This document shows, piece by piece, positions 19,869 through 24,573 of a stretch of DNA of 32,000 nucleotides (its first letter is position 1; each line of letters opens with the position of its first letter). Where the stretch lies: the NCBI GenBank assembly GCA_041521345.1, contig JBGOHB010000002.1. The stretch is one strand, 5' to 3'. The translations under genes and the position numbers were made by a program. Source of the stretch: Virgibacillus oceani (GTDB lineage: Bacteria > Bacillota > Bacilli > Bacillales > Amphibacillaceae). The notes beneath the pieces are model-generated. The model made no database searches. It was not told the origin of the DNA and worked only from the letters and a program-made list of their open reading frames with translations.

Positions 19869-20368
19869 GATTATCTTCCTCCAGATATCATTCTACCCTT
19901 TTTATTGGCTCTTCAACCCTCTTAAAGCTTGGTTTCATGCCTTGTTAACAATTTTCTACCCAATCTTTTCTCCATATATTTGCCAATCACCTAAAATAAT
20001 AAAATACATAACCTACTGTCTTGTTTCGATTTGGAACGGGTGGAAACTCCATAACATTTGAACTCAATAGGCAAGCTCGCCCTTCACTGCATACATGCTG
20101 CTAAAACTGATGATACAGAAACGTTGAATAAATTTTTGAAAGGTTTTTACTCGTGAAATTATTCTATACTCAATTCGTATCCCATTCATATCAACCAGGA
20201 TTAAACTGAAGTGTTTAATTCTAATCCAAACTGCCTGCTATACCTAGTCAGAACCACGGAACAGCTACTTTAATTTCATTGTTTTTCATTTTTTTATTGT
20301 ATTTTTCCGTTGGTTTTGCATATAATATAGAAACAGAGAACATTTGTTCTTTTTTGGAGGGATGTCGT

Positions 20369-20758
20369 ATGCGGTATCTTCAAGATGAGGATTCTAAAGT
20401 GTCCGTACGTTTTCTTTTTTTATCCATGGCAATGATCGTCATTGAGCAGGATATAAAGCATGTGGAAGCCGGACCATTCAAAATAAAAGAACCGTATCTG
20501 CAGCTATTGAAAAGCATGATGCAGATCGCTGTTAGTGAACGGAAGCAGTTAAGAAAAATCATGTTGCAGAAAAGCATGCATGTAGTAAGACTGCATAAAA
20601 ATGATTCGTTCTCCACTTTTTTACTTATCTGTGATGGTCATGAGGAAAAAAGGAATTTTTTTAATCCGGCAATACGGATGAAAGTGGAGGAAATTTTACA
20701 GGAGCTTATGGATAAGGCTCTGCTATCATCCCAGCAGTATGTTTCTTCAAATACTTGA
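20369..20758 (+). CDS. hypothetical protein, 129 aa (position corresponds to the B. subtilis yhjD/yhzC neighbourhood)
   Basis: ATG at 20369 follows GGAGGGATGTCGT. The track start at 20279 has no RBS. Its 3' end overlaps the comK remnant convergently by 53 nt. Confidence 0.5.
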   Translation: MRYLQDEDSKVSVRFLFLSMAMIVIEQDIKHVEAGPFKIKEPYLQLLKSMMQIAVSERKQLRKIMLQKSMHVVRLHKNDSFSTFLLICDGHEEKRNFFNPAIRMKVEEILQELMDKALLSSQQYVSSNT

Positions 20759-20963
20759 GCCGGTGATCCAGCGTATAGCGAAATTGAGCCGTTCGCTGTA
20801 TTTGATTTTGAATCGAACCATAAGAAACTTGCAGCAACACCCGCTGGCCATCTTTGAAAATAATTTCCGTACCTTTACCCACTTTATTAACATGTTCAAT
20901 ATGGGAATGACCAATCCATGAGCATGAGGGGTTTCTCGGAGATGTAGTCGGAAAGAAGTACAT
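20706..20963 (-). pseudogene. comK: comK 3' fragment (C-terminal half of the competence transcription factor), truncated by prophage insertion
   Basis: FFPTTSPRNPSCSWIGHSHIEHV...LQVSYGSIQNQIQRTAQFRYTLDHRL aligns to B. subtilis ComK LFPTLSSTRPQCGWISHVHVKEF...LPISYNSFENQVYRTAWLRTKFQDRI (second half of the protein). An in-frame stop lies 8 codons upstream of the ATG (20990-20988). Phage genes follow immediately. Confidence 0.8.
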
Positions 20964-21141
20964 GCTAATTATAACAATGTAATAGACTTATTAATAATAT
21001 AAAACACTGATTTAATAGGGTTTTAGGGAGTGTGCTTCCAGTTGAATAAGTCTATTTTTTTATTGAAAGTGTATCACGAGTTGTATCACAGATAAACAAT
21101 AATAAATATAGAGGAGCCTTGAAGGCTCTTTTTCTTTTGTG

Positions 21142-21169
21142 AAAATAAAAAGCCCTCGGTGTGAGGGCT
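21142..21169 (-). terminator. rho-independent terminator ending the accessory operon
   Basis: Stem AGCCCTC / GAGGGCT starts right after the stop codon and is followed on the minus strand by TTTTTATTTT. Confidence 0.8.
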
Positions 21170-21712
21170 TTACATTTGAGTTATAAAAGTAACTATAATT
21201 GCTGATATTCCTATAATAAAAGCCACTTGTCCCCAAAAGTTAGTTCTTTTCATTGACTCTAAATTTTTAACGGAATCATCAATTTTTTGTTCTGACTTTT
21301 CAAGACTAGCTTTCATTTTCTCATTTTCTTCAACAATTTTATTTTCAAGTTTTTCTATTACTGCAATAAAGCGTTCTTCTCTTTCTTTACTTTCTTTTTG
21401 ATAATTTTTTAAAGATTCATTAAAACGTTCTTCACGATTAATCGTTTCTTCCCTAAGCCTTGTTTCACGTTCTCGTGCATCATCCAGTAAATGCTTTTCT
21501 GTTTCTCTTCTATCGGTATCAACTTTTTCCATATATTTTTCTAATATTTTACTGTCATCCATTTTTTCACCGCCGTTATATTGATGGTTACTAGTTGCTG
21601 CTATTTCATTTATAGGTATAGCATGGTTTAAGTGTGATCTTTTACGTTTACCACCTATAACACCGTCAGACTGTCCAGGAAATTCAATGACTTTGCCCTC
21701 AGAAGCATTCAT
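21170..21712 (-). CDS. C-tail-anchored coiled-coil membrane protein, 180 aa, function unknown
   Basis: ATGA start/stop overlap with the upstream gene; RBS GGAGAGGG. A long charged E/K/R heptad-like region ends in a single C-terminal TM segment (FWGQVAFIIGISAIIVTFITQM). Confidence 0.65.
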   Translation of the reverse strand: MNASEGKVIEFPGQSDGVIGGKRKRSHLNHAIPINEIAATSNHQYNGGEKMDDSKILEKYMEKVDTDRRETEKHLLDDARERETRLREETINREERFNESLKNYQKESKEREERFIAVIEKLENKIVEENEKMKASLEKSEQKIDDSVKNLESMKRTNFWGQVAFIIGISAIIVTFITQM

Positions 21713-22350
21713 TCATTTTCCCTCTCCTCTAACTCACTTTCAAGTGTAATCAGATATTCCTTTAAATCAATAGTTGTCGATTCTAAATCAGAAACAATGG
21801 TTCTAAGGTTAGATATATCTTCGAAACTGACAGCCCCTTCATTTAACATTAATGAAAAATAATACAGAATATCAGATATCATTAAAGAAAAATCTTTCGT
21901 GTCCACAGACATTAAAAATTGATCAGAATCATTTCTTAGTAGGTACATATTAAACATGTTTCTATTCTGATTATGCGTAAAATCCACTTTATCAAAACCC
22001 AAAGGATTAACATTGAATTGTTTGGCTCTCTTAAAATCCAATGAATAATTAAACAATAAATAATTCAAAAAAGTATTTGCTTTTTCGTTTTTAAATATTA
22101 TATCGTCATAGGAATTGTCTTTAATATTTCCTCCCAATGCAAACCAAAATAGAAACATCGAAGCCTCTATTCCCATTATTTTAGGTAAAAATTCATCTCT
22201 CAAATTATAATATGACTTTGGCCATTCAGGACCTTCTATGCAACGATCAATAGTGTTTATTAATAGATGCTTATTAAATTCGTCTGATATGTAATCAATA
22301 AATGAATTGTAACCTTCTATTACTTGGTTGTAATCTAAATCTATTTCCAA
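21709..22350 (-). CDS. hypothetical protein, 213 aa, no recognisable motif
   Basis: Preferred start is TTG at 22350, 7 nt after AAGGAGGG. The track ATG at 22461 has no RBS and overlaps the YolD-like gene. Very AT-rich. Translationally coupled to the downstream gene. Confidence 0.6.
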   Translation of the reverse strand: MEIDLDYNQVIEGYNSFIDYISDEFNKHLLINTIDRCIEGPEWPKSYYNLRDEFLPKIMGIEASMFLFWFALGGNIKDNSYDDIIFKNEKANTFLNYLLFNYSLDFKRAKQFNVNPLGFDKVDFTHNQNRNMFNMYLLRNDSDQFLMSVDTKDFSLMISDILYYFSLMLNEGAVSFEDISNLRTIVSDLESTTIDLKEYLITLESELEERENE

Positions 22351-22441
22351 TATTTCTCCCTCCTTATATTGAATACATTCTACAAATAAGGTCTCTTTTC
22401 CTGCTTTTTTGCAAAATAGATATAACAATTGTAAATTTAAT

Positions 22442-22756
22442 TTAATCCACCATAACATCAATTACATCATTAATGCCAACCTTTGTTCCGTCATCAAAAA
22501 TAATACAGTCATCAGCAACAATACTTTTTAATTTACCTCTCAACATATGGTATTCATAATTGCTGAAAAACTTTACTTCAACAGTAAGACTATCGTGAAT
22601 AGCAAGCTGCAGCTTCATCACATTTTCCTCTATCTGCTGTTCATCCTGGATTGGCTTTTCTTTTTTATCATCTTCTGCCCACATTTCTTTAATCATCTGT
22701 ACATGCTCAGGCAACATGAGCGTAGTCCATTTTATGCTACCCCTGTCATTTGTCAT
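22442..22756 (-). CDS. YolD-like protein
   Basis: RGSIKWTTLMLPEHVQMIKEMW matches the YolD-family signature (R-G-x-I-K-W...MLPEH). RBS AGGAGG. ATGA overlap with the upstream gene. Confidence 0.75.
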   Translation of the reverse strand: MTNDRGSIKWTTLMLPEHVQMIKEMWAEDDKKEKPIQDEQQIEENVMKLQLAIHDSLTVEVKFFSNYEYHMLRGKLKSIVADDCIIFDDGTKVGINDVIDVMVD

Positions 22757-22965
22757 GCTGTAAACCTCCTGCTTGCTTTTTGTAACGACAATATGTTTTC
22801 CATTTTAAAGGTGCGTACCTTCTTCCGATAATAACAATAAGCTAAAATGCTGTTTTCATGCTTATCCAGTACCCGGATAAACCGCTGTGTCAAGTTATTA
22901 TCGTCATCAATATAAATCATTTCCAACACAGTTTTACTACCGACGGCACGGTTTATTAAGTCCAT
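22753..22965 (-). CDS. small WYL-like domain protein, 70 aa
   Basis: VLEMIYIDDDNNLTQRFIRVLDKHENSILAYCYYRKKVRTFKMENILSL follows the WYL-domain pattern (Y-x-d-x-g-x-x-T-x-R-x-I...ayC...R-x-F...I). RBS GAGGTGA. Confidence 0.5.
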   Translation of the reverse strand: MDLINRAVGSKTVLEMIYIDDDNNLTQRFIRVLDKHENSILAYCYYRKKVRTFKMENILSLQKASRRFTA

Positions 22966-22981
22966 AAGATCACCTCAAAAG

Positions 22982-23035
22982 GAAACGTTTGTTCTAATAT
23001 GATACCATAAAAACGAGAACGTGTGTACTGTTGTT
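22982..23035 (-). promoter_or_regulatory. putative SOS-regulated promoter with two LexA (Cheo) boxes
   Basis: On the minus strand: -35 TACACA, 17-nt spacer, extended -10 TGgTATCAT. Box 1 is AGAACAAACGTTTC (22995-22982), just downstream of -10. Box 2 is AGTACACACGTTCT (23029-23016), overlapping -35, with one mismatch to GAAC-N4-GTTC. Confidence 0.55.
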
Positions 23036-23040
23036 TATAG

Positions 23041-23068
23041 TTGAATATTTTGCTTTTTAATATATAAT
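23041..23068 (+). promoter_or_regulatory. putative sigma-A promoter for the small Cys-rich ORF (divergent from the SOS promoter)
   Basis: TTGAAT, 16-nt spacer, TATAAT. Confidence 0.4.
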
Positions 23069-23159
23069 AAAAAATAAAAACCAAAATAACAGAAATCAAT
23101 AGAAAAGAATAAAAATATGGTTTCCAAATTATTTTTACCAAAAAATTGGAGGTATTTTT

Positions 23160-23303
23160 ATGAGTGATAATTACTGTGAATGCAATTCAATCGCAGGAGT
23201 GTATACTGATAATGTGGATTTTGGATATTGGGAGTACTGCACTGAATGCAATAAAAAGTTAGAAGATGGGTTCCATTATTATGATGAGCCTGAACTATAT
23301 TAA
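23160..23303 (+). CDS. 47-aa CxC...CxxC zinc-ribbon-like microprotein
   Basis: Below the track cutoff. ATG follows TTGGAGGTATTTTT. Translation MSDNYCECNSIAGVYTDNVDFGYWEYCTECNKKLEDGFHYYDEPELY. A terminator follows. Confidence 0.5.
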   Translation: MSDNYCECNSIAGVYTDNVDFGYWEYCTECNKKLEDGFHYYDEPELY

Positions 23304-23316
23304 AAGTTTATTGTTT

Positions 23317-23351
23317 AAAAAGGGTAGAGTTTTCCAGGCTCCACCCTTTTT
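23317..23351. terminator. bidirectional terminator (small plus-strand ORF / endolysin)
   Basis: Stem GGGTAGAG / CTCCACCC (one mismatch), flanked by an A-run and a T-run. Confidence 0.65.
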
Positions 23352-23392
23352 AAAATCAATAACACAAACATGAAAGAAGGATTTAACCTTAA

Positions 23393-24322
23393 TTATACAA
23401 ATGTCCCTGAATTTAATTGACGTTGCATTTCCCTGACCACCATAGATGGCCTACTTAACACACCATCTACGGTAGTACCCAAGTAAGTCTGTAACAACCT
23501 AATTGTCTGCGGTCCGAGTAAACCATCCACAGTAGCTCCAATTAACTTCTGCAACGCACGAATCACCATACTGCCGCCGCTGTTACTAAAACGTACAGTA
23601 TTGCCGTACATAGCTTCAGTGACAGAGTTTCTACGTTGGTTACTTATGATATCGTCAACAGTTGTACCAAGCGCAACCTGTAACGCTCCTGTTGTAGCAC
23701 CTCCCCACTTGCCATCAACTGTGAGGTTTGCACCTTTTGACTTGCTTGGAGGTTTAGCCTTTCCACCGCCAGAGCCGCCAGACAGCCCCAAATAAACCGC
23801 AATCCCTTTCGCATGTGCCTCAGCAATCTTTCTCAGGTTGCTATCACTCTTTAAAAAATCTGCATCCTGTGAATTGTCGATAAAGCCGTTTTCCGTTAGT
23901 ACTGCCGGCATACTGGACTGTCTCAATACTGCAAAGTTAGCCTGTTTTTTACCACGGTTGTTTCTAAACAGCGGAGCCAATTCTGCATGTAATGCATCTT
24001 GCAATTTTCCAGCTTCGGAATTTCTGCTTAATTGATTATAAATATAATCCTCATACCCATAGGCAGATCCGTTAAAAGCATTAATGTGGATAGATACAAA
24101 GATATCTGCTCCCCAGCTGTTTGCATCATTTGTACGATCTGTTAGCGATGGGAAACTGTCATCATTACGAGACATTCTCACAGATACACCACTATAATCA
24201 TTCTGCAAATAGTTCCTTGTATAACGTGCGATTTTTAGCACCACATCTTTTTCCTTTAATCCATTACCCGCAGCACCCGGATCACTGCCACCATGACCTG
24301 GATCTAAATATACTTTAGACAT
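23393..24322 (-). CDS. N-acetylmuramoyl-L-alanine amidase endolysin (Amidase_3 plus peptidoglycan-binding repeats)
   Basis: MSKVYLDPGHGGSDPGA...SIHINA matches the amidase_3 core. The C-terminus has three VDG-x-x-G-x-x-T...LQ repeats (PG_binding_1-like). Confidence 0.95.
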   Translation of the reverse strand: MSKVYLDPGHGGSDPGAAGNGLKEKDVVLKIARYTRNYLQNDYSGVSVRMSRNDDSFPSLTDRTNDANSWGADIFVSIHINAFNGSAYGYEDYIYNQLSRNSEAGKLQDALHAELAPLFRNNRGKKQANFAVLRQSSMPAVLTENGFIDNSQDADFLKSDSNLRKIAEAHAKGIAVYLGLSGGSGGGKAKPPSKSKGANLTVDGKWGGATTGALQVALGTTVDDIISNQRRNSVTEAMYGNTVRFSNSGGSMVIRALQKLIGATVDGLLGPQTIRLLQTYLGTTVDGVLSRPSMVVREMQRQLNSGTFV

Positions 24323-24573
24323 TATTTAGCCTCCTTTTCTCCATTTAAATACTGCTGAGCCCTTTTAGCTTCAGCCGTCCAGTTATTGTTTTTCCAGTGA
24401 TTCCAAATCTCTGTACCCGCCAATGCAATAACAGATATACCTGCTACAATAGTCTCGTTGTCAAAAGGAAGTAGTTCATATCCAAACATTAGAGCTCCAG
24501 CATTAGCAAATACAACTGCCATAGCTACCAGACGGATCCATTTGTTATCAATTTTTTTAAGTTGTTTTCTCAT
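24322..24573 (-). CDS. holin (SPP1/XhlB-type)
   Basis: 83 aa with two TM segments and the HWKNNNWT motif typical of this holin family, followed by a charged tail. TAATG junction with the amidase gene. Confidence 0.8.
   Translation of the reverse strand: MRKQLKKIDNKWIRLVAMAVVFANAGALMFGYELLPFDNETIVAGISVIALAGTEIWNHWKNNNWTAEAKRAQQYLNGEKEAK

Follow-up and report, generated by a model that had tools for sequence, protein, structure and literature searches.

A predicted LexA-repressed promoter of a mini-WYL and YolD gene pair at the left end of a Virgibacillus oceani prophage

Genes and promoter elements at the prophage end

The window, meaning the whole stretch of 32,000 nucleotides of Virgibacillus oceani DNA that was analyzed, contains the left end of a 42.3-kb prophage that splits comK, and the promoter region described here lies at that end (Table 1). 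The two comK fragments overlap at Pfam profile positions 81 to 99. Four other ComK-family genes, all full-length, were found in the genome. Close protein relatives were from Virgibacillus and Oceanobacillus, and a megablast search of positions 20900 to 23400 against phage records returned no match.

Table 1. Positions of genes, promoter elements, and LexA-type sites at the prophage left end (window coordinates unless a contig is named)
Feature	Position	Strand	Basis or remark
comK, C-terminal fragment	20706-20963		Within the window
comK, N-terminal part	C20:65924-66208		Outside the window, ~42 kb further along the same contig
Intrinsic terminator, end of transcription unit	21149-21171	-	Terminator scan: 9-bp stem, 5 G-C pairs, T run
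Gene 4, 180-aa coiled-coil protein with C-terminal membrane anchor	21170-21712	-	ORF list; start/stop-coupled to gene 3
Gene 3, 213-aa protein	21709-22350	-	TTG start; first gene of a two-gene prophage-end cassette
Gap between YolD-family gene and gene 3	22351-22441	-	91 nt
Gene 2, 104-aa YolD-family protein	22442-22756	-	PF08863, 63.5 bits, E = 2e-17; start/stop-coupled to gene 1
Gene 1, 70-aa stand-alone WYL-domain protein	22753-22965	-	Ribosome-binding site GAGGTG at 22971-22976
Box 1, AGAACAAACGTTTC	22982-22995	-	Candidate proximal LexA operator, GAAC-N4-GTTT
Extended -10, TGgTATCAT	22999-23007	-	Promoter scan; TGnTATAAT kept at the equivalent place in relatives
Box 2, AGTACACACGTTCT	23016-23029	-	LexA-like, overlaps -35; right half GTTC perfect, left half degenerate (GTAC)
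-35-like hexamer, TACACA (4/6)	23022-23027	-	Promoter scan; 17-nt spacer to TATCAT
Divergent sigma-A-type promoter, TTGAAT-16-TATAAT	23041-23068	+	Promoter scan, 10/12; for the 47-aa ORF
47-aa Cys-rich ORF (CxC...CxxC)	23160-23303	+	Downstream of the divergent promoter
Amidase_3 endolysin gene	23393-24322		Lysis gene, right of the promoter region
SPP1-type holin gene	24322-24573		Lysis gene, right of the promoter region; tail genes also on that side

The product of gene 1 was matched by the PADLOC WYL model (E = 1e-7) and scored 20.3 bits against the Pfam WYL profile, under the cutoff of 21.8. Its AlphaFold model (pLDDT 88) contains the Sm/SH3-like five-stranded barrel of the WYL domain, and the best PDB matches found with Foldseek were the WYL domains of BrxR, PafBC, CapW, and DriD (TM 0.74 to 0.82), with CapW and DriD WYL domains bound to single-stranded DNA (ssDNA) among the matching entries. 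No DNA-binding helix-turn-helix (HTH) was found in this protein from the AlphaFold model and Foldseek matches. NCBIfam returned no names for genes 1 to 3, and PADLOC returned none for genes 2 to 4.

YolD is an SH3-like protein of the WYL superfamily that has been proposed as a UmuD analog (PMC4012209, PMC6511836); what it does in translesion synthesis remains a matter of dispute (PMC13335488). The YolD-family class is LexA controlled in Bacillus subtilis, in SPbeta, and in Staphylococcus aureus (PMC6511836, PMC8270828). No Y-family polymerase gene was found beside the YolD-family gene in the window, where the next genes are those for the 213-aa protein and the 180-aa membrane-anchored protein. 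The Y-family (IMS) polymerase gene identified in this genome, at C96:48344-49627 (L096), has no neighboring YolD gene.

Gene 3 most likely starts at the TTG at 22350, which is preceded by AAGGAGGG, and not at position 22461, the start of the longest ORF; its homologs and the gene calls in protein databases are 207 to 213 aa long. With this start, the apparent overlap with the YolD-family gene becomes the 91-nt gap listed in Table 1. An AlphaFold model of gene 3, made from a single sequence and for an over-long 250-aa version, had a pLDDT of 39.6. Similarity of gene 4 to XhlA was weak only, and its counterparts in other loci have the same architecture with no sequence similarity.

A consensus promoter scan recovered the extended -10 that the earlier note had placed just before box 1, and the divergent sigma-A promoter that it had described close by was found 12 bp from box 2. 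The predicted transcription start of the minus-strand promoter (~22992) falls within box 1. The 47-aa ORF behind the divergent promoter has a homolog in Virgibacillus doumboii (L118 3501-3644) that is 75% identical and likewise lies just after a phage amidase gene; because of this homolog in the same place, the ORF is probably a real small gene.

LexA-type sites at the promoter

The Bacillota LexA (Cheo/SOS) box is a 14-bp palindrome with the core GAAC-N4-GTTC, in which variants are tolerated at the G and at the second A of the half-site. Two such boxes had been proposed on the minus strand, AGAACAAACGTTTC at 22995-22982 (box 1) and AGTACACACGTTCT at 23029-23016 (box 2), and both 14-mers were read from the sequence at these positions. 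Each matches the core at 7 of 8 bases. Box 1 begins 3 nt past the -10 and spans the predicted +1. The 3' end of box 2 lies 17 nt upstream of the -10, and its overlap with the -35 holds, since the two share TACACA; the first T of this hexamer is the T of the GTAC half-site. The description of box 2 as having one mismatch is accurate for the 8-bp core, but three mismatches (positions 1, 3, and 14) were counted against the 14-mer consensus quoted with it. The core mismatch replaces the first A of GAAC with T, at a base that is invariant in 85 reference operators.

Cores with at most one mismatch are common. The window contained 15, versus 10.3 expected, and the 4.66-Mb genome contained 1,128. In the one-mismatch class, 22% were intergenic versus 20% for the genome overall, so that no intergenic enrichment was apparent for this class. 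Perfect GAAC-N4-GTTC cores numbered 34 in the whole genome.

To keep the scoring independent of the cassette under study, a LexA matrix was trained on lexA promoters from the same family, drawn from 30 other genera and contributing 85 boxes. With the promoter of this genome counted in, 28 of 31 lexA promoters had three boxes and the other three had one or two; the boxes were spaced 28 to 40 bp apart. The two boxes fared differently when scanned with this matrix: box 1 scored 13.8 bits, within the training range (9.9 to 20.3 bits; 10th percentile, 14.2), and box 2 scored 7.3 bits, under each of the 85 training operators. By score, box 1 ranked 30th in the genome, where 42 sites this good were expected under a Markov null; of the 30 actual sites, 17 were intergenic. 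Sites scoring at least as high as box 2 numbered 727 in the genome, and the null gave ~1,000. The genes behind the top-scoring genome sites included a Y-family polymerase gene, lexA with a divergent resolvase-like neighbor, and YolD genes, and the best site of all (19.2 bits) lies 6 bp upstream of the Y-family polymerase gene on contig C96. Sites at 13 to 14 bits were also followed by unrelated genes, and the matrix score alone therefore cannot separate true from false sites in that range. By score alone, box 1 lies in the grey zone and box 2 lies in the noise. The score of box 1 is not significant genome-wide, and what argues for this site is therefore its position and conservation, not the quality of the match.

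Box 1 was the best LexA-type site of the 42.3-kb prophage and the sole one in a promoter position; a scan of the prophage found no other good LexA sites. It also has the sequence form of a known operator class: in 31 of 31 genera, counting the present genome, the promoter-proximal lexA operator was GAAC-N4-GTTT, the same variant as box 1.

The second-best matrix site of the genome (18.7 bits) is found in the host DNA flanking the prophage. This perfect palindromic LexA box, AGAACATTTGTTCT (20337-20350), lies right after a TATAAT hexamer and before the host gene adjoining the comK fragment. The gene behind it (20369-20758, plus strand) encodes a 129-aa product that is a distant relative of the YhjD family (pairwise E = 5e-8 to a PF26325 protein). 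Strong LexA-type sites were likewise seen upstream of YhjD-family genes in three other loci (L074, L075, and L118).

Conservation of the site and of the gene pair

Homologous loci with non-identical sequences (n = 47; proteins 44 to 80% identical) were searched for sites of at least 12 bits. Such a site was found 15 to 70 nt before the start codon in 45 of these loci and in none of 47 control windows, with the reservation that the loci (L007, L011-L039, and L076-L095) are phylogenetically related and the counts overstate their independence. In about two-thirds of those loci, the 14-mer begins 0 to 1 nt after a TATAAT hexamer (5 or 6 of 6 bases), usually with an upstream TG. The comparative evidence settles the question left by the scores in favor of box 1. 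Its place at the promoter, the contrast between homologous loci and control windows, and its lexA-operator sequence type all agree with the earlier identification of a LexA-type site, and box 1 is very probably a functional LexA operator, as judged from sequence comparisons.

All four YolD-family genes of the genome have an upstream LexA-type site, and for the three other than gene 2 this site has one of the 34 perfect GAAC-N4-GTTC cores. One YolD-family gene belongs to a paralogous cassette in a second prophage of the same genome, on contig C12 (L007 1188-2735), with 76% DNA identity. This paralog retains the -35, TGcTATAAT, and a perfect box 1; box 2 is absent, with its right half lost. The C12 cassette is followed not by genes 3 and 4 but by an XRE-type HTH gene and a gene for an ImmA/IrrE-like metallopeptidase (HEIGH motif, identified by eye). 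What is probably a degenerating remnant of the cassette lies at C42:159087-159345 (L008): a truncated YolD-family ORF of 81 aa, with its N-terminal part missing, that retains a perfect LexA core 23 nt upstream of the start.

The same gene or gene pair was found in the temperate phages Virgibacillus Mimir87, Aeribacillus AP45, and Paenibacillus BN12 (L040 to L042), each with two LexA-like boxes bracketing the -10. When the 70-aa protein was used as the sole query in a related-locus search of genome contigs, no relatives were returned; a family-level genome search did find homologs, which were present in 169 of 246 genomes of the family. In 22 of 31 loci, the YolD gene comes immediately after the 70-aa gene.

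Conservation of box 2 was less uniform. In the 12 closest relatives, the element aACAGTAyAyAyGTTC was recognized, with GTTC kept in 11 of 12 and a left half that was always GTA[C/T] or GTTT and never GAAC. A second site of at least 7 bits, 20 to 45 bp upstream of the proximal site, was found in 14 of 45 loci versus ~0.25 expected, a comparison in which the relatedness of the loci again inflates independence; the other 31 loci had no second site. No further copies of the box 2 motif were found in the prophage when it was considered as a possible phage operator. A reading of the element as an AACA-N7-TGTT palindrome was rejected, as the arms are 4 bp each and imperfect in the window. Box 2 would be at most a weak auxiliary site, and its binding by LexA in vivo is somewhat doubtful on the sequence comparisons.

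Genes 3 and 4 have a different distribution. Their homologs form a two-gene cassette adjoining lysis genes in Ureibacillus, Aeribacillus, and metagenome contigs (L073 to L075 and L116), where no YolD gene lies directly upstream and no upstream LexA site was found. Counterparts of genes 3 and 4 were found in 0 of 30 mini-WYL and YolD cassette loci. A gap of >100 nt is normal after the YolD gene in other loci, which suggests that the conserved unit is bicistronic. The 91-nt gap in the window shares homology with the sequence that natively precedes genes 3 and 4, of which ~75 nt are retained, so that an internal promoter is possible. Neither a terminator-like structure nor a consensus-like promoter was found in 22351-22441, and the terminator scan returned a single good terminator, at the end of gene 4. 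The four-gene operon that had been placed under LexA thus stands in part: genes 1 and 2 have an SOS-type promoter and no terminator precedes gene 3, but genes 3 and 4 are a separate cassette that elsewhere lacks a LexA box. As read from gene order in the compared loci, the unit is a composite of the conserved mini-WYL and YolD pair followed by this two-gene cassette.

Predicted regulation and comparison with known systems

The promoter at 22999-23027 on the minus strand is likely to be a LexA-repressed SOS promoter of the prophage WYL and YolD bicistron. The SOS-type layout claimed in the earlier note agrees with the location of box 1 at the predicted start, the retention of a site in 45 of 47 homologous loci, the lexA-operator type of the motif, and the presence of a YolD-family second gene. 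By the textbook SOS mechanism, in which RecA-stimulated cleavage relieves LexA repression, a dimer of host LexA would occupy box 1 in the absence of damage, covering the promoter from immediately past the -10 to about +11, and no productive RNA polymerase complex would form; upon DNA damage, RecA-stimulated self-cleavage of LexA would free the promoter. Box 2, with a perfect half-site at the -35, might add weak extra repression, and the model does not need it. Transcripts would probably run past the YolD gene into genes 3 and 4 and stop at 21149-21171. We infer LexA binding, damage induction, and read-through from the anatomy of the promoter and its conservation. Control by LexA independent of the phage repressor, as the earlier note proposed, is plausible. 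LexA is not predicted to act on the lysogeny switch, because box 1 is the sole LexA-type site in a promoter position in the prophage.

Box 2 can be read in more than one way. LexA may bind box 1 alone, with box 2 conserved from a common ancestor as part of the -35 and upstream promoter and unbound at physiological concentrations, and this has close to an even chance of being correct. It accords with the low score of box 2 and the 727 genome sites at least as good, with a mismatch at a base that is invariant in the training set, with the T of GTAC being the first T of the -35 hexamer, with the C12 paralog that has box 1 alone, and with the 31 of 45 homologous loci in which the second site is missing. 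The promoter spacer has no sequence requirement for sigma-A. Against a single operator, the GTTC half lies in this spacer and is nevertheless kept in 11 of 12 relatives, second boxes at ~30 bp recur in several clades and phages, and box 2 occupies the position of a validated SPbeta yolD(1) box. A left half that departs from the LexA consensus in 12 of 12 close relatives could also mean that a different regulator reads aACAGTAyAyAyGTTC, alone or with LexA, either phage encoded or as a small LexA cofactor of the gp7 type; GIL01 gp7, which stabilizes LexA on a half-site box, is a precedent, and small proteins (the 70-aa WYL protein and the 47-aa Cys-rich protein) flank the promoter. This reading is improbable: the element is single copy in the prophage, which is not the pattern of a repeated phage operator, the WYL protein has no DNA-binding HTH, and nothing ties the 47-aa protein to LexA. 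That both boxes arose by chance in AT-rich intergenic DNA would fit the frequency of one-mismatch cores, which is as expected in the window (15 versus 10.3) and in the genome, but is scarcely credible given that 45 of 47 loci, versus 0 of 47 controls, have a site at this place in the promoter and that LexA-type sites lie upstream of all four YolD genes of the genome.

The extent of the LexA-controlled unit is a separate matter. Because the gap between the YolD gene and gene 3 contains neither a terminator-like structure nor a consensus-like promoter, LexA-controlled read-through into genes 3 and 4 is slightly favored on sequence grounds, and the only good terminator, at 21149-21171, is consistent with it. 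These features weigh against two transcription units, in which LexA would act on the WYL and YolD genes only and genes 3 and 4 would be expressed mainly from a promoter of their own in the 91-nt gap, with no LexA-dependent damage response. Two units are nonetheless a substantial minority possibility: the gene 3-4 cassette occurs alone after a terminator, without LexA sites, in L073 to L075 and L116, the gap in the window is homologous to the native upstream region of that cassette, and the >100-nt gap after the YolD gene in most loci suggests a bicistronic unit.

The closest known system is the SPbeta yolC-yolD intergenic region. The two SOS boxes of SPbeta yolD lie on either side of its -10, one 17 nt upstream and the other 14 nt downstream, and LexA binds them in vitro with a Kd of 3.9 nM, as tabulated in PMC8270828, which cites Au et al. 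2005. Both regions contain a prophage-borne YolD-family gene, a divergent gene on the other side, and two LexA boxes ~30 bp apart that bracket the -10, here 17 nt upstream and 17 nt downstream. The SPbeta boxes both have perfect cores, whereas each box here has one core mismatch, that of box 2 at an invariant base. Downstream of SPbeta yolD comes uvrX, a Y-family polymerase gene; here no polymerase gene is adjacent, and the YolD gene has a WYL mini-gene on its upstream side and an unrelated two-gene cassette on its downstream side. The regulatory layout is already known from SPbeta yolD, with weaker boxes and different gene content in this prophage, and would not surprise a specialist.

YolD homologs are SOS induced in B. 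subtilis and S. aureus (PMC6511836). The S. aureus genes SACOL1986 and SACOL1400 resemble the arrangement here, in that the YolD gene and the Y-family polymerase gene lie far apart and each has its own LexA site (PMC6511836). B. subtilis yqjX-yqjW and the S. aureus YolD genes are host genes, whereas the genes described here are prophage cargo at the att-proximal end. With Bacillales lexA operators, box 1 shares the proximal GAAC-N4-GTTT form, but lexA promoters have three boxes and this promoter has one good and one degenerate box. The pairing of a canonical LexA box with a neighbor that has a single recognizable half-site resembles dinBox1 and dinBox1b in the P1 promoter of GIL01 from Bacillus thuringiensis, where LexA binds the half-site dinBox1b weakly, with a minor effect in vivo (PMC4551915). 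The GIL01 boxes are adjacent, and LexA there runs the lysogeny switch and needs gp7; the sites here are 34 bp apart and belong to an accessory operon.

With the promoter read as LexA repressed, one more prophage accessory operon would join the host SOS regulon. The mini-WYL and YolD pair, nearly always behind a LexA-type site, is widespread in the family and in temperate phages and is largely unannotated, and the mini-WYL protein is a defined candidate partner for YolD. A more speculative and rather unlikely extension is that the pair is a phage-spread functional unit that senses or binds ssDNA arising from damage and modulates the host Y-family polymerase or LexA/RecA, and that its promoter has also captured the membrane-directed two-gene cassette by read-through, in which case the timing of the cassette's expression would be set by host LexA instead of the phage repressor.

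The bicistron of a 70-aa WYL gene and a YolD-family gene behind a LexA box was also observed among phages that include Mimir87, AP45, and a Paenibacillus Fern-like group, and the pair is mostly annotated as hypothetical in the source records. In Ureibacillus and Aeribacillus prophages, a distant mini-WYL homolog (29% identity in L074) is paired with a YhjD-family gene, again with two LexA boxes.
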